From assembly GCA_958009085.1 (NCBI GenBank), contig OY253670.1, positions 1,054,001 to 1,118,000 on the forward strand: a stretch of 64,000 bases of DNA, given 5' to 3'. Under the pieces are notes generated by a model. The model was not told the DNA's origin. It made no database searches and saw nothing but the letters and a program-made list of their open reading frames with translations. Below, piece by piece: positions 50,326 through 64,000 of this stretch; position 1 is the stretch's first letter; every line of letters begins with the position of its first letter. This DNA is from Protoeuglena noctilucae (taxonomy: Eukaryota). The translations under genes and the position numbers were made by a program.

Positions 50326-50632
50326 CTACGCAGTTCTGGCCTACTGGCGCCAGACATTTGTTGGTCACATTTTCTCGTAGCTTTTCGGGTTTAAGACTTG
50401 GAACCCCACCAGAAGGAACAGAAATCACCGCACGCCCGCTCTAGCCCAGACGAGGCAGGCGGGCCCAAAGGCCGCCGCTAGCGCGCGCTACAACTGCGCC
50501 ATACGCAGCCACACGCAGCTGCCCGTGCCGCAGCGCAGCCTACCCTGCCCTGCTTGCGAGGGTGCCACCCAAACCTCCTCTTTAACTCAGCTCGCTTGCT
50601 CCTCACATCAACTGCCGGCCACCGCTTGGCGT

Positions 50633-53600
50633 TCACCAGAACCCGCCCCCGTTCGGCCGCTGCTGGGGCTGCTGCGGGGGGTAGCCCTGCCCGTAAGCCC
50701 CAGGGGCCTGCATCGCGCCCTGCATACCGTAGTTCCCAGGCATCCCCGGAGCCGCGCCCATCCCCATGGGGGGCTGCTGGTACCCGCCACCGTACATGCC
50801 CGCCCCCATCGGCTGCCCCGGCATGCCCATCCCCATGTTCATCCCGCCCGACTGGCCCGGCGGGAAGTAGCCCCCCTGCGCCCCAGGCGCGGGCCCGTAG
50901 CCCATGCCCATCCCAGCGTTATGACCCCCGCCCTGCATCGGCTGGGCTCCCGAGCTCCCGCCAGTCGGACCCCCCGTCGCAAGCCCCGGCGAGCCATGTC
51001 CCGGCTTCAGGGACTTGAGCGCCATGGAGCCGGTGCGCCTCTGCTCCTCCGCACGCTTCTGGGCCTCCTGCGGGCGTCAAGGCGGCGCACATAGGCGGTC
51101 AGCAACCACAGAGGGAGCGCGTCACACTTCAACTATGAGGTGCGAATAGCGAACAGGACCCATGGACAGGGATGCATGGACTGAGCGCAAAGAGTATCCA
51201 ACACCCCCAGCGCCGCTGCAGTGGCTCGCCTTGGAGTTGGGCAGGCCAAAGTCGAACGGGTCGACGATGCCCGCCTGCTTGCTCTTGGCCAGCTTGGACT
51301 CGGGGGATTGGAACGGGTTGTTGGTGGGCTGCGAGGACGAGACAGATATCGATGCATGTGATCCCAGTCAATCTGAGCAGCGCACAGGGTACATAGCAGT
51401 GCCCCGAAAGGCACGCGGACTTGGCAACGACAAGCACCATCTGCAACCCGTTCCCCACGATACGATACGGCTGTTTCGATAATATCTGCGCACGCCAATC
51501 ACCTTGGCCGGGGTCTCGGATAATGGCGTGGCCTCCACGACGGGCTTGGCCTCAGCCGCGTACCCAGAGGCAGACGCGGGCGCCATGGGAGCGAACAGGT
51601 CCGGCCCAGAGTGGAGGGCTGACATGGGGTCGACGGGGCGGGGTGCCCCCGAGACCTGCAAGCGTGGGCGCGGGGTGGGCGGTGGGTGGCCAAGCCATAT
51701 GACCGATGCTGCGAGGGCTGGGAGGTGGGGACGAGTGCGCGGCTGGCTTTGGCTGCTTCGAAGTGGCGAGGAGGTGAGAGCGAGAGGACGCGGGGGATGT
51801 GAGGGCGCACAAGGCATAGCTGGGGCGGCAAAGCAGCTGGGTTCGTAGGTGCACATGACACAGCCCGCACCATCGCGTCCTCACCTGGGGCATGGGCATG
51901 GCGAAGGGGTCGTCGTGGTGCGGCGCGGCAGACACGGGGTTGACGCCGCTGCCGCCGTACAGCAGCTCGTTGACTTTCTGAGACCCGCCCGCCTGCGAGC
52001 ACCATCGACTTTCCTGGTAAGCATGGCGGTGGGCCCTGCCACGGCGTGCCATGGTGGCGAGCATAGCAATGATCAGACCGACACCGAGCAGCATGCGTGG
52101 GTGCCCGCTGCAGGTGGCACATAAGAGGAGCAGCGCAGTCACCGGGGCAGCCGAGACGGCGGGGTAGGCCGGCGGGGCCTGGTATGCGGGGGCAGGGGGC
52201 GGCTGGCTGACGGCAGGGACGGTCGCGAAGGACGCAAAGGCGTCGTCCTCGAACCCGAAGCCCTGCGAGGCGTGCGCCGCGGGCGGCGGGGCGGAGGCAG
52301 CCGGCGGCTGGGACCAGGGCGCCGAGTGCTGGGCCGGGGGCGTGGTGCTGTACCCCTGGGGCCCGGCGAAGGGGTCGGGCCGAGCGGGGGCACGGTCCTT
52401 CAGGGACAGACCCCCCAGCTCCCCCATAAGCATGTCCGCGTTGTTGCCGTACTTGCTCTGCGGGGAGGGCACCGGGGCGGGGCAAGTCATTGACCTTCGA
52501 GCGCCAACGTCACCCTTATCTGTCCTACAGAAAAGATGCTTGAAATGAACGGAGCGCGATTGGGGAGTGTCGGAGCAACGCCGGCCGTGGTTTGACTCAC
52601 CGGGTCGTGCACGGGGGACTCTTGCGCGTCGGCGTTGCCAGAGAGGAAGTCGCCGGACGGCGGGACCTCCGAGCCAGAGTAGAGGGCCGGGCCCGAGGAG
52701 GACAGCTGGCCGTTCACCATGGCGGTGCGGACGGTGCCCCAACCGGACGTGAGCTTGCCCATGAGAGCGTTGTTGTTCGCGATTGGCTGCGGCCAGGGCG
52801 GCAGAGGGGTGCCGGTCCGGCAAGGAAGCAACCAGGCTGAGCGACAGCTGCACTGCTTGCACGTGTGGAGCTTGCTAACTCCAGCGCAGCGCAGGGCAGT
52901 GCACGTGTCCCCGACTGTGCCGCATCTGTCGCGCACCTGTGCGGGGCGCTTGCTGGGGTCTGCCGACGACTGCCCCTTGATGTACAGCTCCATGTCCTTG
53001 ACAAAGTCCACGGGCAGGGGCTCCAGGGGCGGGAAGTGGAGGTGGCCCAGCGGGCCCCCGATCTCCTTGCACTTCTCCCTGCAAAGGCGCCAAGGCATCA
53101 CCACGCTCGCTCTTCTGACCGAGTCGTTGGTGACGGAGGCCCGGTGACCTGAGGATTCTGACTTTGCGATAAAGACATGTCGGCGTCTCACCAGAAGTCG
53201 CTGAGGGACTGGTGCATGGTCATGGCGCTCTGGTACAGCTGCAGCGCCGTCTTGGCGTCCTCCACGTTCATCTCAAAGAACTTGTCACTGCGGGAAGGAG
53301 ACGGGGGTTGTTTAAATGTAGATGTAATGGACTGGCATGGGCCGCAGGTGAGACAGCCTGGCATGCAACTCGCCAGATGTTCACAATGCCCTCCCCGATG
53401 GCCCGGAAGAGGATGAAGGACTCCTGGGCGCAGAACTCCATACAACGCATGGTGACCTCGCTGCGCGGACAAGAAGGAAGAGAGGGTCATGCCTTGCCTT
53501 GTACAAGCACGCGGACTTGCGCCACGCCTTGCCGGGCCCGGCCTGCGCGTCACCTGCTCCGGGCCTGCGCCTCCGGGACGCACGCGACGAGCTTGTTGAG

Positions 53601-55133
53601 CGCCGTCTGCGCCTGAGGCAGCTTGGCCAGCACCTCGTTCACCGGCATCTCCTTGAAGACCGTCGTGTTGCGCTGGGCCGTGTCGATAAACAGGTCCAGC
53701 TCCAGCGCCCTGAAGACAAGGAGAGGACGACAGTAGATCAACCCGCGCCTGGTCCCGCTCCGCTCCCGGCCAGCGGCACATCGCAGTGGTGACACAGTGC
53801 CTCGTGGCGCGAGGCGTTTTGTGTCCATCTTGGAGACACACCTGAAGAGGAAGAGCCGCTCCGAGAGGTACTCGGAATAGACGCGGATGAAGGAGCTCTG
53901 GACTTGGGACTCGGGGGTGCTGGCGTCACGGAAGGTGTGCTTGTCCAGGATGGAGTGCGCGCCCATGCGGGTCATGTACTCGACCAGGGCCCGCTGGAAG
54001 TTCGGGTTCGTCTCACGGAACAGGCGGTGGAAGACTGCGCGCGGGGGTGCGGGGAGCGTCGGCGTCAGGGCTTCAGGCAGGTGACGACGCGACCAATGCT
54101 AGCGCTGGCAGGCGCTGTGCGAGTCGCACCGGTGAGGAGCTTGAGGACGACGAGCCAGTCGAGGCCCACGCGCTCCATCCGCTTACACAGCTGCCTGCGC
54201 GTGCCAAGGAGAGCACCCGGTTTGGCAAGCCGCGCAAGGGTCGATCATGCGACCCTCTCCCGACCGGCGAGGGGCCCACCTGAGCGTGTACTCGAGCACG
54301 TTGCCCTGACGATGGATCCCGAACTCGACGGCCTGCTTCAGGGTCGTCACGTGCTTCTCCTTGGGCGTCACCCGGTCGTGGTTCGTGGCCTGCGTGCGCG
54401 GGGCCGCGGGGATGTATCCTGGCGTCCCGGGTGGAGCGTGCGATAGATAGGGTGGTACTGATGGAAAAGCGTGCCCGTCGCGGTCCGGCCTCGCCTTGGT
54501 CAGCGCCACGTCGATCTCCGGGAAGTCTTTGGACGACGCGCCGATCTTCATCAGCCGCGCCTTGTCCTTCAGCGCGCCTATGAAGGCGCTGACCTGCAGT
54601 GGAAGCGCAGGAGCGCAGCGCGTGCGGCGTGGGCGCGGCGGGCGGGCGCTAGGGCTGGCCCGCGCCCTCCATCTTCGCCGAGGGTCACTGTCGAAACGTG
54701 CGGCGCGACCGGACGGACAACTGGCTCCCGGGAAATCAAGACGTATAAAAGAGCGCATCGCGGGCAAAGACGGCCCGGGAGGCGGCCCCAGGGGGGCGGG
54801 CACACGCGCTTGCCCTTTGGACCCGTTGAAAAGCGCATTAGCGCCCGAAGCGGGGCGCCAGCGGGATCTCCCGGGTACCCGCAAACGAGAGGGACGAAGA
54901 TCAATCGCGCACGTGGTCCGAGACCGCGGATGACGTCTCCGGAGCACGGTCTGTTGCAAGGCGCAAGCGTGGAGTGCCCCAGGAGGGCTGACGGTTGTGG
55001 ACACGCGGACGAGCGCTCGTGGGAGCTGTCCGATTGTCGTGAGCTACATGCCGGCCCCGAACGCCGGCGAAATCGCGTCCAGGGCCGGTCCTGGCTCGGC
55101 AACGGTGCCGGAGGTCACCTTCTCGTTTTCCAT
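50633..55133 (-). CDS. ANTH-domain clathrin assembly protein (AP180/PICALM-like)
   Basis: IGALKDK, DVALTKATNHD..PKEKHV, WLVVLKLLTVFHRLFRE, SSFIRVYSEYLSERL, ESFILFRAIGEGIVNICDKFFEM; disordered tail with DPF/NPF motifs and a Gly/Met/Pro/Gln-rich end. Confidence 0.9.
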
Positions 55134-55497
55134 GGTCGGCGCTCCTCCTCGTATCCGGCCGAGAATCAAACGTGACGGCGCTAGGCAGGTCCGCCTGGGG
55201 CGCTGCCGGGCGAGCCAGCGAGCTGCGCTGGGCTTTCTGCTCGACGAGTATTTCGCCGGGGCTCGTGCTAACCGCAGCGCCGGAGACCCCGATGAACAGC
55301 GATGAGCCGCCGCAACCGCACGGGTGGGGTCGCTGGGCCCCGAAACGAGGTCTGACTGGCGCCAGTACGAGTGTTGACCACGAACCTCGGCCCGGAATCG
55401 CGGAAATCGCGCGTCGGCATCCCCATCGGAAGCGCGGTGCTGGCCGCGGCGCGCCCTCCGGGGCGAGGCAGCAGGCTGTCCGACGCAACACGTCTCG

Positions 55498-58400
55498 ATG
55501 GGGTGCGCCCCGAGTGCTCACGCGGCAGAGGCTGTCGAGCCGCACGACCGGGCTGTGATTGAGACACAACTTCCTCAGAAGACGGGGAGCGTCAAGGGCG
55601 CTGGAACCGGGGGTCTTGGGGGCCAGAAGGACGACGACATGGGCCAGCGGCGAAAGCAGGCACAGGCGAGAGGGAGTTTCCGCACGAGGGACCTGGCGTT
55701 GGAAAGTCTTGGGCCACAGGTATCGTTTTGGAAGCGCTTCTGGCGTGCAGGGTTACGGGGACGTCATTTCCTCCCCCACGTTCACGACGGGCAGAGGGCA
55801 GAGCCATGTGTCCTGGCCACCTCCTCCCAAGCCAAAGCTCCCTGCAGCCCGAGCGCAACCTAACCCAGTACCGGTGAAAGACCCGGTCGTGCCTCCCCCC
55901 GAAACTCCCTTACCCTCTCGTCAGAGCCGCGAGGCGCCCCTTGCCAAGGTGGGCGCTCACCTCATTGGTGCCCTGCCCCTCCAGAAGAGCGCCAGTCACG
56001 TGCCGAGTCCGAATCTTGCACCGTCATTGCAGAGGCGGGCGTCCTTCAAGGATGTCCGTTCCGATGCCAACGACCTCAGCCGTCCGCAAGGGGTGCTGAC
56101 GCACGAGGCCATGCTGCTCACCATGCCCTTCCAGCTCCAAGTCGCCGCTACGGAGTCCCGCAAAGCAGAGATCGTCTCCATCGTAGATGCCGTCATGGCC
56201 CTCGTGGACAGGGTGAGCCGATGACACGCGACGTCAGGAGCCCCCGCCAAGGCCCTTCGTAGTCGCTAGCCAAGCACCGCAACCGTTGCCCGCTTGCCCC
56301 CCTTCTCGCAGCACTTCAACAATTGGAACCCCGACAGCGAGATCTCCGCCATCAACTCCCCGCTTCGGCAGACCCCCGCCAGAGTGTCCCCTGAGCTGGG
56401 GGCGCTCCTGGACCTGGCAGAGTCGGCTGTTCGCCTCACGTCGGGTCGCTTCGACCCCACCGTGCTGCCCCTGCTCGAGGTGTGGCGGGAGTCGCTGCTC
56501 AAGGACGGCCGCGAGCCCCACCGGAGCGAGCTGCAGCGGCTGTCCCCCGCGGTGGGATGGACGCGGAACGTGCAGCTCGTGCGGGACCGGGGGCGCGTGG
56601 AGGCCGTCGAGCTCGAGTGCGAGGAGTGCCGGATAGACCTGGGTGGCGTCGCCAAGGGCCACGCGCTGGACCTGCTGGGGGAGGCCCTGGTCGCGAAGGG
56701 CTTCGTGAACTGGGTGATAGAGTGGGGCGGGGACGTGCTGGCGCGCGGAGTGCATCCGCAGGGCCGCCCCTGGCGCACGTGCCTGGCGCGGCCGCCGCCC
56801 ACCGAGAGTCTCTTCACGTTGTGGACGAAAGACTTGGTGGAAGACTGCCTCAAGAGCCAGGGCGTCTTAGCTGGCGTGGACTTGCACGAATGCGCGGCCG
56901 CCACCTCCGGGGACTTCTTCCAGGTGTACAAGTTCGGATACCACCACATCGTGGACGGGGAGAGCCTCTCGCTGATGCGGGCGGGGCAGGAGGGGGTGGC
57001 GTGCGTCACGGTGGTGGCGGCGAGCGCGGCGCGGGCGGACGCGTTCGCCACGGCGGCGATGGCCTGTGCGTCGGTGGAGGCGGCGGCCGGCATGCTCGAC
57101 AGGCTCGTGGCCGAGGGGCACGTGGGGGGTTTCTGCCTTCTGTCCCGCGCCAGGGCTCCCGTGATGCGTGGCGGCATGTTCCATGCGGCTGCCTCTGCGG
57201 CCGACCCCGGCCCCAGCAGCGGGGTCTTTGCGTCACTGCCCGCCACTGGACCTCCGGATGAGGCGCAGGCGTGGCTGCAGCTGGAACAGGCCTCGAGCCG
57301 CCTCCTGCCGCCCCGATCCGTGCTGGTGGAGACGGAAGGGACAGCAGTGGAGGTGCGGCGGCGGTGGGGAGTGTTCATGTGCCCATGTTCCGTCGTAGCT
57401 ACATGTTGTCATGAGGGCCGAGCGTGGCATGGCCAATCTGAGTCAGTGTGGCTGCCCACGCAGGTTCCGACCCTCGCAACGGTGTCTCTCCGCCCGCTGA
57501 TGGTGTCTTTCGTGGCCCCGCACACCCTGCCATTGCGACAAGGGTCCAAGGCGCGGGTGACGATCTCCGACGGCCGGGGCCAAGGCAGGGTTGCAACGGT
57601 CAGGGTCGTCGACACGGTGTGTGTGTGTGTGTGTGTGTGTGACCATCGTATCAATTGCCAAGAGTCGCTGGTCTCTGCATTTATCACCTTGTCTCGACCG
57701 TCGCCGTGTCTGCAGCTCGAGGCACCCGGGCGGTGCGTGGTGGCCCTGTGCGGGGTGGACGACGTGGAGGGCGCCGGCTTAGAGACCGACAGCCTGCCCG
57801 ACAGGCTCAAGGCAGCGCTGCGTGATGCCCCCGCGCAAATATGGTGAGCCGGTTGTTGCCGGGTGAAGCTTCCATGGGGTCTGCGCCCCTGGGTCACCCC
57901 ACCCTGCCGCTCTCTCGCACCCTGCAGCATCGTGACCTTCACTGGAGCGGACAGCACGCCGTACGCAGTCACGGCCTCGTCCGTCCGAATGCACACGGGG
58001 TCGTGCTTCGTTTTCAACTTGCAGCTCAACTCTCGGGCCGGCATGGCGGCAGAAGAGTTGCAAGGGCGGCAGTTCCGCTTGCATTACCTCAGCGGGGCGC
58101 ACGCGGAGCTCGCCAAACACCATTCGGTGGACCCAGTGGTGGGCAGCTGTGGCACGCTGGCCTCACATCGTGCACATATAGTGGAGGCTGTGGTGGCATA
58201 CCCTCTGTGTCTGACACAGCCCACCACAACCGTGCTCGCAGTTCGACGAGGGAGTATATCGTGATTTGATGGGCCGTGAGCCACCTAGCCAGGGCTCAGA
58301 CGGCGCCCCCTGCATCGACGCAGGTGTGTGCGCGGATGGGCGCCAAGGCACCGCTTGCCCTGATCTGGATACACGGCATGGCCACTCGCCTCTTCTGCTT

Positions 58401-58557
58401 CGCAGGCGTTACATGCGTGGTGCGGCTGCTGGGCAGCGGCACGGCTGGGGATCACTTGGTGCTTGTCTGCGGCCTTGACCTCGTTGCGATACTCGATGGC
58501 GACTTCCTGGACGATCGCCCGCTCATCTACCGCGACCGGGAGTTTGCCGTCGCATGA
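55498..58557 (+). CDS. ApbE (FAD:protein FMN transferase) fused to flavin-reductase-like domain(s), with N-terminal MGCxxS motif
   Basis: Exon 1 55498-55665 (MGCAPS...) joins 55751 in frame through a GC-AG intron. ApbE motifs: HFNNWNPDSEISAIN, GRFDPTVLPL, IDLGGVAKGHALD, EWGGD, ATSGDF, HHIVD, ADAFATA. C-terminal Flavin_Reduct-like motifs: TVSLRPLMVSF, LKAALR..ICIVT..PYAVTASSV, GDHLVLV, PLIYRDREF. Confidence 0.85.
57617..57640 (+). repeat. (GT)12 microsatellite starting at an intron donor
   Basis: gacacg|gtgtgtgtgtgtgtgtgtgtgtgt read directly. Confidence 0.92.
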
Positions 58558-58896
58558 CATGCCACGTACCACGGACCACGTTTAGATGTCTTCAACGTTG
58601 TCAGAACCACGCTGCCCTGCTCTCGGCTGTGGCCCGGGACATGCAAAAGAGACGCGACGGGGGCTGCCGGGCAAGGCTAGGATCGTCCAGGCCAGAGATG
58701 GGACAAAAAGCAGAGCGCCCCCGCGCCGCGCGTGCCGTGCGGTGGCTGCGGGGGGCGCCCAAAGACAGGGTGCCGTAGGGGACCAAGGGACCAAGGGGGC
58801 ATGAGGCCGTCGCGCGGCGTGTGCGTGCCAAGCCCTGCCATGGGGCTGAGCGGATGGCCTCGCCGTGCCCCCGAGGTCGGCGCTCGGCCGTGCTCC

Positions 58897-61577
58897 TTAG
58901 CACTTGAACTCGAGCTGCATGTTGTTTTCGGGCGGGAGGCCCACGCACGCGCGGAGGGTGTTCTCGAGCATGGCGCGCTGCTTGGCCAGGGCGTTCACGA
59001 CGGGCTTGCCCTGGGGCACCAGGGGCGCCTTGGTCAGGTACGACAGGAGGACGGCGATGGGGTGGAAGTGGTGGAAGGCAGAGTCGCTGTCCTGCTTGAT
59101 CTGCAGAAACGGCCATGTGAAGGAAGGGTCGGGGACAAGGATAGGCTAGATAGAGTAGGCGGGGCATCGCTTTCCACTAAGCGTTGCTTGTTGCGGCACC
59201 AGCGGGCGCCTTCGGACAGACGGTGCGGTCCCGGCATGCGCGCAAGCCTGGCGCCCCACCTGGATGCGGGTGATGAGCTCGGCGAGGATGACGAGGTCGA
59301 GGATGATGGGCGCGGCAAGGAGCGAGTCCTCGCACGTGTTGTGGATGGCGAGCGTGTTGCGGCCGCCCATGAAGATCTCCGACGTGTACTCGTCCATCGC
59401 ACGCTTCGAGTCGCCCACGTACGGCACGTACTTGATCACCACCAGGTGGTCGGGGTGCTCGCCGGCCTTGTACAGGATCTGCGAGACGCAAGGTGGGCGG
59501 GCGCCAGGTGATGGGCGGGAGCGAGGCGGGCGGGAGCGACGTGGCAGGCCAGGTTGGTAGTAGCGTAGCGAGTATCACCTGGTTGCTCTGCACCATGTCG
59601 TCGACGACGTTCGACTTGGAGATCTCCTTCGAGCGGAAGGTCTGGGGGGCCGAGAGGTTGAGGCCGTCGTTGTTGCCGAGGTGGTTGTACGAGACGATCG
59701 ACACGGGCTTGATGCCGGCGCCGACCAGGAAGTCCACGAGCACCGACTTGAGCTGCGGGAGGGGCCGGGAGAGCCTCGCGTTGTCGTTGCGCACAGGCGG
59801 GCGAGGGCCGTGGGATGCGGTACGGGGTGGGCCGGCCCTACGGTATGGTGGCACGCGCCCGGCGCACGCCTGCTCGCCTTGGTCTGGCCCGACTTGAAGT
59901 CATCGCCGCCGATGAGGACGTTCTTGCGCTCGGCGAGTTCGATGAGCCCGGGGACGAAGGTGTTCTGGGGCGCGCCGTTGATGAAGGGGCAGCCCTCGTT
60001 GATGGCCGCGACCGCGTAGAGCGTGGAGGGCGCCACCTCGCTCTCGCCCCGCTCGATCGCCGCAAGGAGGTTATCTGCCGTGTCGTTCAGGCCGTCCAGG
60101 ACGTCCGCGTACCGCTCCGTGTTGGCGGTCCACAGCACGATGACCTTGTCGAGCGCGTTGGCCTCCTTGAAGGCGCGGATGTGCTCCTGCACCTGCGCCA
60201 CCTGCTCCACCTTGGTGCCCCGCAGCACGTTGTCGGCGCGGGGGCCCTGGTTGGCCGCGACGAAGTTCTGGTCGAAGATGGCGGGCAGCGGCACCATGTC
60301 GCGCATGTGCGGCACCAGCTGCTTCTGCAGTTCCCAGTCCAGCACCAGCGCCCGCTCCATCGCCTCCGCCAGGTTGGCCTTCGAGATGTCCCAGCCGCCC
60401 ACCACCAGGTCGTTCGGGCTCACCATCGGCAGGAGCGCCTGCGGGCGACCGACGTCGCACGCGATGATCGGAGGGCCGCCGCGGGCCCTCGAGGCGCGCG
60501 GACGCGCACGCGACGGCCAACAAACCCTTCCGCACCTTGAGCGGCGCCCACGCCTCCTCCCCGTTGAAGTTGCCCAGGCGGACCGTCGACGCCTGCGTGA
60601 TGGATCCCCAGTAGTTGGGCTTCCGCAGGCCGTCCTTGGTCATCCACGTGATCCCCTCCCGATTGGCGATGATGCCGCCCGTGATCGTGCTGCCGTTGTT
60701 CCCGCCCCAGCCCACCAGCATCACCCTGCGGGGGCAGCGTGGGAGGCGATCCATCGTCGCGGAGGGAGCCGGCGCAATTGAAAGGCCGGAAAGCTGATCG
60801 ACAGAGGCGCCCGAAACGCCCGCCCGGGCTCGCGCTTGGGGCCCAGTCGGCCGGCGAGGGCCCATGTGGGAGTCCGAGGGGGGCAGGCCGGGCCAGGGCA
60901 GCGAGAGGATCCCCGAGCCCCGTCGCCACAAATCCAGGGCGGCTCGCCCCACCCGAACGCATCCCGCGAACCCCGGGCCGTGCCCCGCGCGCGGCGGTGC
61001 CCGCTGGTTGTGGACAAGCCTGGACCCCACGGCGCTCGGCCGAACGGCGGGTCCGCGACGGGGCCGCGGTGGGCCAAACGCGCACAGGATACCAAAATGC
61101 GCACCCGCGACACCCCGCGCGCCCGCCCAGCCCGGCCCCGGCGCTGGGAGGGGCTCGGGCCCCGCGCCCGCGGCTCCGGCGGGCGCCGCGGGGGTCGCGG
61201 GGTGTCGCGAATGGTCTACCCGAGGCTACGGAGGAAAGGCACGCGGCGGGGCGCGCCCCTCCGCCGGCGGGGGCGCAGCCCCCGGTCGAGAGTCGGGCGC
61301 GGGGCCCCCCGGCCGGTCGAAATCGGCGCGGGATGAACTAGGGATGGGCCGCGGCCACCGCCGTCGGGAGGTTCGCGGAGGCGGGGACGGGCGCTTACCC
61401 GAGCTTGGGGAGCGCAGTCCCCGTCCGGAACTGGAAGGTCTGCTGGACCGGCTTGACGATAATGCCACCATCGGCCGCCTGCTCGATCCGCGTCGTGTCG
61501 TACTTGAACGTAGACTCGATGAATTCTCCCCCGTACACCACATTGGGGCTCTCGACGCGGAACCGGTCGACGTGCAT
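58897..61577 (-). CDS. INO1: Myo-inositol-1-phosphate synthase
   Basis: [86 protein letters not shown] and MQLEFKC*. ATG 61577 follows an acceptor-like CAG, so a 5' UTR intron is possible. Confidence 0.97.
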
Positions 61578-62041
61578 CTGCCTGCGGCACGGACGGAGGC
61601 ACGGGGAGTCGGTGTCGCAGCGACGGGCCCGGGGCCCGCCGGATTCCGCGCGCCCGCGCCCCAACAGGCGACAGCATGCGACGCGCTGGGCAGCCTCACG
61701 TTGGCTCCTGTCCTGCTGCCCCTGGGAGGGTGGTGTATGGGGGAGCGCGGATATGGTCGCCAAGTCGCGCCCGGGGCCCTCCTGGCGCAGTCCGGCGGCC
61801 CGAGAACATCCCACTGACACCACGCGTCTGGCAGCGGTCAGGCTTCACCACGAACGCTGCTGAGGGGCGCGGGGCTCGCCAACTTGCACCTAAATGAGGA
61901 TCCGGTGCTCTCCTGCGACCCTGTCTCTTGTTTGGTTCGGGAATCCCATTGCGTGCCTCCCTGGGCTCGCAATCGCCGGCGCGGGACCGTGACCGAGACG
62001 AAGGAAGCCGTTCTTCAGGCGCCGGCCTCGCGGGGGAGCTC

Positions 62042-64000
62042 ATGAAAGCGCTAATCGTGGGGGCTGGCCCTGCGGGCCTTTTGGTCGCGCTGCAGCTGGC
62101 TGACGCTGGGTGGAACGTGGAGGTGGGAGCTCAGATGCAGCAGCTTTGTTGCTGTAGATTGCATGTTGGATGCGACGCGGCGTTGGTGCGTGGCACAGGG
62201 ACGCATGGGACGCGCTGCAAAACACAGCCCAGCATGAGCATGCGGCCCGCCTGAACTTGTGCGCAGATGGTGGAGGTACTAGATGATCCTCGATGGGGCC
62301 CGCGGGAGGATGACAGGACGTACGAGATCGTTCTGGTGAGGGTGGCAAGGCGGGGCCCTTGCCAAGGGATGCTGCTGGCCGATGCGGGGGACGCCGGCTG
62401 CGCTCTTTGCTCAGCCATGTCGATTGCATAATGTGCTTGCTGCCGATGCATCGTCGCTGTGTGCGAGCGCCCGCGGGCCTCGAAACGGCACAAACTACAC
62501 ACGGTGCTGTTGACCGGTCCCGTCTTCGCCTGCGGACAGCGGGGACATCGATGCCTCCGTCGGCTGCAGATGGAGAGAGGCATGAGTGCGCTGAAGATGG
62601 CGGGAATAGACGACCCCGACGACGACATGGCGACGTTCGTCGGCAGCGTCAACCACAACACCCGCGCGGGCGTCCGCTGGGGCCCGGGCGTCCTCCAGAT
62701 GCTGTCCAAGAAGCAGCGGACGATCTACGGGGTTCGACAGGAAATCGACTCCATGATCCTGAACCGCATCGAGGCCAAGGCGAGTTCAGGCACCCGTGGC
62801 CCTCGTGAGTGCCCCTCGCGCTCTCTTAGGGAGCGGTCTGACTCGCGTCCGCTCTCCTCGCGCGCAGGGCCACCTGCAGTCTTCTGTGCGGATTCACTGG
62901 GGCTACCGCGCCAAGCACATCGACCTCGCGGCCAGGCGGGTCGTCGCGGAGCGGGTCGCCCCTGACCCTGCGCCTCCCGCAGACGCATCTCATGCGGGCC
63001 CCAGCAACGCCCGGTCCGCCGCGGCATCCGAGGCGGGGCCCTTGGGGTCCTCTCCGCGCCATCCCTCGCGCCGGCACTCCCTGGCCGGCTCGCTGGCGTC
63101 GGCCGTGTCGGACAACGACGACGAGGAGCTGGGCGAGGCCTCGCGGGCCACCGAGCGCACGGAGTTCGTCGCAGCTGCCGCCACGCCGCCCAAGCTGCCG
63201 CCCAAGGAGGTCACCTTGGAGTACGAAGTCCTCATCGGGGCAGACGGCGTGCACAGGTGAGATAACGAGAGACGATCAATGCCTGGCTTGGCCTCATGAC
63301 ATGGCCCACCTGGCATGGCCTCGTGGCTCGCAGTGCGGTTCGGGAATCCATGGCGAGCGTCCCCGACGGCATCACGGCGTCCGTCGTCCCGGGCAACCTC
63401 GGTTACTTCACCGCCCGGTGCCAGGAACCGAGGGACGTGATGATTTACGAGGAGGTGGCTCGGAAGGGGCTGTCCGGGTACGATCTTGACACCGCCAAGG
63501 GTTGGATTCACGTCATACCGGGGGCCAAGCCCGTCCACTGCGACCAGCTGGGATACGCAGACGTGAGCCTTGCGATGGGTTGGGGCCGTGCCCGAGGCTC
63601 GGCATGCAGATGCGACGGCCAAGATCGGCAAATGCTTTGCATCCCCGCCGCCCTCGCAGCACCCGTCGATGATGCTGCTGTCGAGCCTGAGGGGCGTGCC
63701 CTTGGAGCGTGCGCGGGAGGCGGCGCGCGAGTGCCGGGTGGTTTTCCTGGGACCCTTCACGTGGCTGCAGACGCTGAACAACCAGGCCGCGGCGTTCGAG
63801 GCGCTGCAGGAGCAGTTCGGGGGTCGTATCCGCAAGAGCGTCCTGGCGTCCATTGCAGGCGAGCCACGCGGCGATGCCGGAGACGGGTGGGTGGGAGGGT
63901 GGCAGGGACGCACGACGTGGTAGTAACAGACGCGGCCGCGGTCTTGACGTCTGCTGCAGAGCAGATCGCCACGGAGGGCGGGCCGTTTGGTGGTGGCTAC
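62042..64000 (+). CDS. FAD-dependent monooxygenase (kynurenine 3-monooxygenase-like); 3' end runs off the window
   Basis: MKALIVGAGPAGLLVALQLA (GxGxxG), RTYEIVL|MERGMSAL and YEVLIGADGVHSAVR (DG motif). Confidence 0.8.

Follow-up and report, generated by a model that had tools for sequence, protein, structure and literature searches.

We report that Protoeuglena noctilucae encodes a fusion protein in which an ApbE flavin-transferase domain is preceded by a conserved flavinylation-type motif, DVISSPT, and followed by two flavin-reductase-like repeats. The sequence evidence makes it likely that FMN is put on Thr66 of this motif in cis, by the protein's own ApbE domain. For the protein as a whole we lean slightly towards a reading in which the tethered FMN serves a single composite NAD(P)H site split between the two repeats. 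The gene lies in a stretch of 64,000 nt (OY253670.1, GCA_958009085.1; hereafter the window), which is eukaryotic and GC-rich. Its structure is as follows.

55498..58557, + strand: nine-exon gene for the 770-aa ApbE and tandem flavin-reductase-like fusion (RNA joints and reading frame)
55498-55665, 55751-55948, 56033-56212, 56312-57352 and 57464-57616, + strand: exons 1-5
57716-57843, 57928-58138, 58242-58323 and 58406-58557, + strand: exons 6-9
55666-55750, + strand: intron 1, GC-AG, 85 nt, phase 0 (RNA joint in runs X2 and X4)
55498..55515, + strand: MGCAPS N-terminus, predicted myristoylation/palmitoylation signal (sequence)

The RNA evidence consists of contigs from four metatranscriptome runs, all of one study, covering positions 54600-59000. 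Seven of the eight introns are seen as RNA joints; the eighth (57617-57715), which falls on a GT repeat, was placed from contig pieces and frame. A joint from 55662 to 55748, free to slide by 4 letters, is present in two of the four runs and resolves to the GC-AG intron at 55666-55750. The statement of the original prediction on how exon 2 opens is thereby borne out, as these joints make the exon begin with GYGD from 55751. A 31-nt GT-AG intron at 55720-55750, also in frame and with a stronger-looking GT at 55720, was considered and set aside, since its use is not seen and the RNA joints take the GC donor at 55666. The database protein P0002 (723 aa) has the same junctions as the 770-aa model and is read from Met48. 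Between the upstream stop and 55498 there is no in-frame ATG. An MGC start is shared by 31 of the 60 other family rows, and an MG start by 35. By the consensus for such signals, MGCAPS is a predicted myristoylation/palmitoylation signal.

The motif and the region that follows it are located at:

55760..55783, + strand: predicted flavinylation target DVISSPT(F), Asp60-Thr66 (translation and family alignment)
55784..56086, + strand: Pro-rich, poorly conserved arm, aa 68-140, spanning intron 2 (alignment)

Translation agrees with the original prediction in reading 55760-55789 as DVISSPTFTT and in placing the predicted FMN acceptor, Thr66, at the ACG codon 55778-55780. Compared with the kinetoplastid-type motif Dxx(s/t)(s/g)A[ST], positions 1, 4, 5 and 7 fit (D60, S63, S64 and T66) and position 6 fails, so that Pro65 in place of Ala is the sole mismatch, as had been claimed. 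Compared with the strict bacterial motif D-x-x-[ST]-G-A-[ST], there are two mismatches, at positions 5 (Ser) and 6 (Pro). DVISSPT is N-terminal to ApbE on the same chain, 74 residues ahead of the start of the ApbE profile, and it is the only D..[ST][GS].[ST] match in the 770-aa model. Thr66 is followed by Phe at +1 and Thr at +2, and Leu, Tyr or Phe occupies +1 in 40 of the 60 aligned rows; for the kinetoplastid-type motif, the literature describes a hydrophobic residue after the acceptor and proposes Val at +2. An F/Y-x-G-L-L-like element downstream of the motif is missing in this protein. It is kept in at least 34 of 58 members, by a pattern that misses some, and in the three closest motif-bearing relatives of this protein.

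A single match of this kind could be a chance product of low-complexity sequence. The pattern D..[ST][GS].[ST] arises in 438 of 20000 shuffles of aa 2-140 (2.2%), which alone makes the match modest, and D..[ST][GS][AP][ST] arises in 121 of 20000. What lifts DVISSPT far above chance is its conservation in orthologues. The family was gathered by three homologue searches and one profile search, and consists of proteins in which a flavin-reductase-like region comes after ApbE. Its named members are Cyanidioschyzon merolae, Pedinophyceae sp. YPF-701, Cymbomonas, Gloeochaete, Eutreptiella, Ploeotia, Diplonema, Lacrimia, Papus, Diphylleia and Cochliopodium; from the style of their labels we further take P0007 to be from Cyanophora, P0040 from a heterolobosean and P0233 from Hemistasia. 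The motif is common to relatives in red algae, green algae, glaucophytes, euglenozoans and one amoeba. In the IQ-TREE phylogeny the query groups with the Pedinophyceae protein (support 100/94), which makes a green-algal host probable.

For motif counts, 93 proteins were dereplicated at 70% identity to 61, from which the query and 7 proteins lacking an N-terminal extension of at least 25 aa were removed, leaving 53. The published kinetoplastid pattern, D..[ST][SG]A[ST], occurs in 10 of the 53 N-terminal arms; shuffles give 0.38 on average, and none of 2000 reaches 10. Among the 36 members outside the seed alignment it occurs in 7, where 0.21 are expected. The enrichment is found only upstream of ApbE, the pattern being present in just 1/53 ApbE domains and 1/53 post-ApbE linkers. 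Two looser patterns, written after the sequences had been seen, are found in 31 of 53 arms ([DE]..[ST].[AP][ST]; 4.4 expected) and in 49 of 53 ([DE]....[AP][ST]; 18.1 expected). The strict bacterial motif is not enriched, with 1/53 arms at chance level.

An unguided alignment of 69 proteins comprises, besides the query, 60 rows and 8 fragments without a residue at the acceptor column, with P0005 and P0145 forming one cluster. In 56 of the 60 other rows, [DE]xxxx[AP][ST] stands in one alignment block. Among the four exceptions, P0006 begins inside the motif, P0195 has a motif elsewhere (aa 174), and P0004 and P0209 are without it, possibly because their starts are truncated. Nine of the 60 rows carry the exact kinetoplastid motif. 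Positions 4 and 5 of the block vary widely (S/A/T/L and S/A/T/M), and the distance from acceptor to ApbE ranges from 20 to 103 aa across the family. In the arm between motif and ApbE, almost nothing is aligned at P0002 positions 28-38 and 46-66. The original prediction had called for comparing conservation of the motif in orthologues with that of the divergent flanking linker, and this comparison came out in its favour, with a conserved motif and an unalignable linker. Since the block is kept over very distant lineages amid unalignable flanks, the alignment implies selection on it; the shuffle statistics, for their part, ignore kinship. A chance match in low-complexity sequence is ruled out by the family enrichment, its restriction to the N-terminal arm and the one-block alignment, and we give it practically no credence.

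The main weakness of the flavinylation reading is Pro65. In the parts of the ApbE-target literature covered, no Pro-containing flavinylated site is described, and the word 'proline' occurs 0 times in PMC12052999 and PMC10722498. An Ala-to-Val change in a bacterial target is cited, second-hand, as halving flavinylation. Across 80 prokaryotic apbE loci, position 6 of D..[ST]G.[ST] is Ala 16 times and Pro once. The Pro variant of this green-algal lineage might be poorly modified or not modified at all, or act as a pseudo-substrate in the ApbE site, within a family whose motif is otherwise a flavinylation site; the loss of the F/Y-x-G-L-L-like element in this protein would fit as well. Against this stands the distribution of Pro in the family. 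At position 6, the 60 aligned rows (58 tree tips) have Ala 46 times and Pro 12 times. On the 58 tips, parsimony requires five changes from Ala to Pro, starting from an Ala root, and every Pro group is sister to a group with Ala, under IQ-TREE as well. The Asp and the acceptor are always kept, and the acceptor that goes with Pro is Thr 11 times out of 12. One would expect decay in a dead site, but D/-V[AI]xxPT[FYW] is retained by four members of the green clade. Because of the five independent changes and the Ala-bearing sister of each Pro group, the tree argues that Pro for Ala is a recurrent family variant, arisen about five times, rather than decay. We regard an unmodified or poorly modified Pro variant as unlikely and retain Thr66 as the predicted acceptor.

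The domain that would carry out the modification is intact in its expected catalytic residues.

56087..57151, + strand: ApbE flavin-transferase domain, ~aa 141-462 (PF02424, 166 bits against a cut-off of 25.6)
56654, 56906, 56945 and 57038, + strand: ApbE residues Lys297, Ser381, His394 and Asp425, respectively (alignment)

The domain aligns to the solved ApbE structure 6NXI, in which Ser381, His394 and Asp425 (the Mg-binding Asp of ADxxATA) are matched. Across the family, Lys is conserved in 64 of 64 rows, Ser in 68/68, His in 63/68 and Asp in 68/68. The catalytic triad given in section 7 of PMC12052999 agrees with the Ser, His and Asp found here, and Asp425 corresponds to the Asp of Trypanosoma brucei ADALATA, mutation of which kills ApbE (bioRxiv 10.1101/2020.12.30.424822). 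The domain is thus predicted to be an FAD:protein FMN transferase with its catalytic residues kept. The general-base His is absent at the aligned column in five of the 68 proteins (P0208, P0209, P0233, P0301 and P0069), four of which keep the target motif. Single exons outside ApbE give no Pfam match above cut-off.

The conserved block might instead serve as a docking strand or phosphorylation site, with ApbE modifying another protein in trans. The wide variation at positions 4 and 5 would suit such a role. The conserved positions 1, 6 and 7 are, by contrast, those of the ApbE motif, the 9 exact rows carry the proven kinetoplastid motif, and only the minority of members with Pro would have a Ser/Thr-Pro kinase site. 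The genome, which has one ApbE match, is also without a detected FMN_bind or RnfD/NqrB match, the usual trans targets, in searches that ignore introns and do not prove absence. Its two full-length FAD_binding_2 genes resemble SdhA and a soluble fumarate-reductase-like gene, neither of them fused to ApbE, and either may be a trans target of ApbE. The soluble fumarate-reductase-like gene (G000:C3:1583971-1585585, L003) has no ApbE match on the same contig. A role of the block other than flavinylation appears very unlikely to us. The original prediction of Thr66 as a cis target is supported at the level of sequence by the conserved motif, the alternation of Pro and Ala, the intact catalytic ApbE residues and the failure to find another usual target in the genome.

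Downstream of ApbE, the protein continues with two repeats:

57296..57772, + strand: flavin-reductase-like repeat 1, ~aa 511-599, degenerate, with SxxP (Ser537-Pro540) kept and GDH absent
57800..58548, + strand: flavin-reductase-like repeat 2, aa 609-768, with Lys612, TASS (638-641) and GDH (735-737)

The two repeats are homologous to each other (HHalign probability 96.8, E 2.5e-10; control segment 0.1). In this protein PF01613 remains below cut-off (18.2 against 27 bits, E 0.0029); with E<=0.01 as the limit it matches 20 of the 21 aligned members, the best value being 4e-28, and the reductase region gives profile matches to HpaC/PheA2 structures at E 1e-7 to 1e-18. PF03358 matches none of the 21 members, and the ESM Atlas gave no usable match for P0002 or P0128. 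The protein resembles HpaC, PheA2, ThdF and BorF (PF01613) in its split-barrel signature and in the (S/T/C)xxPP and GDH motifs by which the HpaC-like family is defined (PMC11795597). It differs from an HpaC-type homodimer in that one chain holds two unequal repeats, each bearing part of the motifs, in its fusion to ApbE and in a flavin that is predicted to be covalent. GDH is G735-D736-H737 of repeat 2, which has no (S/T/C)xxPP; SLRPL is found in repeat 1 instead. The same division is seen in the 45 rows with the same repeat order. There, repeat 1 has Ser in 42 and Pro in 40, and at its GDH position His does not rank among the five commonest residues, whereas repeat 2 has Lys or Arg in 41, Asp in 45 and His in 44, and Ser in only 17. 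Several euglenozoan members have the repeats in reversed order.

In ThdF, NADH is contacted by Arg16 and His136 from one chain and by Ser48 from the partner chain (PMC11795597); from its spacing relative to HpaC, we infer that Ser48 is the SxxPP serine. The division of motifs between the two repeats fits one composite site in a pseudo-dimer, the pseudo-dimer being suggested by the repeat homology. The low PF01613 score of this protein speaks against such a site, as do the three single-repeat members without GDH that are described below. We propose that the ApbE domain would attach FMN to Thr66 of the same chain, mainly in cis; in T. brucei, cis flavinylation is reported to be at least 5 times more efficient (bioRxiv 10.1101/2020.12.30.424822). 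The two repeats would form a pseudo-dimer whose single composite site takes GDH and Lys from one repeat and the SxxP serine from the other. The tethered FMN would dock in this site and be reduced there by NAD(P)H. A precedent is provided by bacterial FMN_red proteins, which bear the motif on an unstructured tail and are modelled to hold the tethered flavin in the reductase site (bioRxiv 10.1101/2024.03.13.584918). More speculatively, an MGC lipid anchor could place the enzyme at the cytosolic face of a membrane, where the reduced flavin might hand its electrons to an acceptor, be it as the swinging shuttle of the original prediction or as a fixed cofactor that stays in the site.

The family also contains proteins that depart from this arrangement. 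The single-repeat members P0050, P0127 and P0204 have TATS and SxxPP together and no GDH, which is replaced by GSS in P0050 and P0127. In P0257 the reductase domain is absent altogether. P0050, P0127 and P0257 keep the motif. Because GDH is lacking in the first three and the whole reductase domain in the fourth, the motif is not strictly dependent on an NADH site in cis. These members speak for a different use of the same modification, in which Thr66 is flavinylated in cis, the FMN serves a partner protein, and the repeats handle free flavin, for example by supplying or recycling FAD/FMN for ApbE. The presence of the same cassette on fumarate reductase (FRD) in P0311 and P0312, where the arm links separate domains, points in the same direction. 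Such a division of labour has to contend with the preservation of the fusion over very distant lineages and with a composite site that is complete whichever way the repeats are ordered, and no partner was identified in the genome by searches that ignore introns. We consider service to a partner protein rather improbable, and continue to favour delivery of the tethered FMN to the composite site.

The closest proven system is the kinetoplastid FRDg of Trypanosoma brucei and Leptomonas pyrrhocoris, in which the motif is likewise N-terminal to ApbE on the same chain (bioRxiv 10.1101/2020.12.30.424822). Both systems share this arrangement, Ser at position 5 rather than the bacterial Gly, and the Asp of ADxxATA. 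They differ in what lies downstream, a PF01613-like pair of repeats in the alga against flavocytochrome c and cytochrome b5 reductase in FRDg, and in the motif, which in the alga has Pro at position 6 and a Thr acceptor and is found at residues 60-66 behind an MGC start, against residues 3-9. Only ApbE and a weak PF01613 match were found in our protein, with neither flavocytochrome c (PF00890), which P0311 shows as a positive control, nor cytochrome b5 reductase after ApbE. The algal fusion would work like the kinetoplastid FRD cassette, outside that enzyme family. In the tree, which does not include T. brucei, the FRD-fused ApbEs P0311 and P0312 nest among the euglenozoan family members (support 92/87), and for this reason the proven kinetoplastid cassette is probably homologous to that of the family. 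Diplonema papillatum has both an ApbE-fumarate reductase (P0312, DIPPA_23738) and an ApbE-flavin-reductase fusion (P0301, KAJ9470076.1); the 2020 T. brucei preprint gives the D. papillatum genome as having no ApbE (bioRxiv 10.1101/2020.12.30.424822).

The ApbE-associated FMN_red (PF03358) and Flavodoxin_4 proteins of Firmicutes are similar in that the motif is borne on an unstructured extension by a reductase that otherwise binds its flavin non-covalently, and section 6 of the same preprint that describes them models the tethered FMN at the existing site (bioRxiv 10.1101/2024.03.13.584918). They are distinguished by belonging to another reductase family, by a separate apbE gene, by a C-terminal position of the extension and by their bacterial origin. 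The nearest prokaryotic ApbE domains are those of Chlamydiota ApbE lipoproteins, which are stand-alone or fused to FolD (P0033, P0062, P0064 and P0065). An IQ-TREE analysis under a mixture model was run on 57 rows chosen from 151, comprising 31 eukaryotic, 14 Chlamydiae-type and 12 other bacterial ApbE domains. The eukaryotic ApbEs lie on one side of a branch (91/96), and the Chlamydiae-type domains join them at 100/100. FastTree had placed Chlamydiae inside the eukaryotic clade, a topology that was dropped as the mixture model makes the Chlamydiae-type domains the sister group. Of the 14 Chlamydiae-type domains, P0066 is the only one named as Chlamydia, and most of the best-matching named genome loci are Chlamydiota (L010-L033, L081 and L089). 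No reductase-like ORF was found in the 80 prokaryotic apbE loci with flanks of up to 3 kb. Taken at its widest, the material would describe an ancient, eukaryote-wide group of self-flavinylating, lipid-anchored NADH oxidoreductases, with a swinging-arm FMN charged in a pseudo-dimeric site and electrons delivered at the membrane, an ApbE domain sister to that of Chlamydiae, and a motif-ApbE cassette from which kinetoplastid FRD took its own. We put this forward tentatively, as a scenario that is possible and in its entirety doubtful.

In the parts of the literature covered, fumarate reductase, mainly that of kinetoplastids, is the only eukaryotic protein for which flavinylation by ApbE is described, and eukaryotic ApbE is called rare. 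A eukaryotic fusion of ApbE with a flavin reductase is not described in the literature searched (mostly open-access main texts). The present locus contributes the Pro variant, a view of how broad the family is, the division of the reductase site and the connection with the FRD cassette. Together they point to covalent FMN proteins of a second and more widespread kind in eukaryotes, for which an acceptor residue can be named and which are also present in the tractable red alga Cyanidioschyzon merolae, and suggest a source of the kinetoplastid cassette. The ApbE recognition rule would be widened to allow Glu at position 1 and Pro at position 6 and to leave positions 4-5 free, which matters to target prediction and to the engineering of flavin tags.

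The neighbours of the fusion gene in the window were assigned by eye. The gene on the - strand at ~50500-55150, divergent from it, is presumably an ANTH/AP180-like clathrin adaptor gene; that at 58900-61580 (- strand), converging on it, we take to be a myo-inositol-1-phosphate synthase gene, and that at 62044-64000 (+ strand) is presumably an FAD-dependent monooxygenase-like gene.
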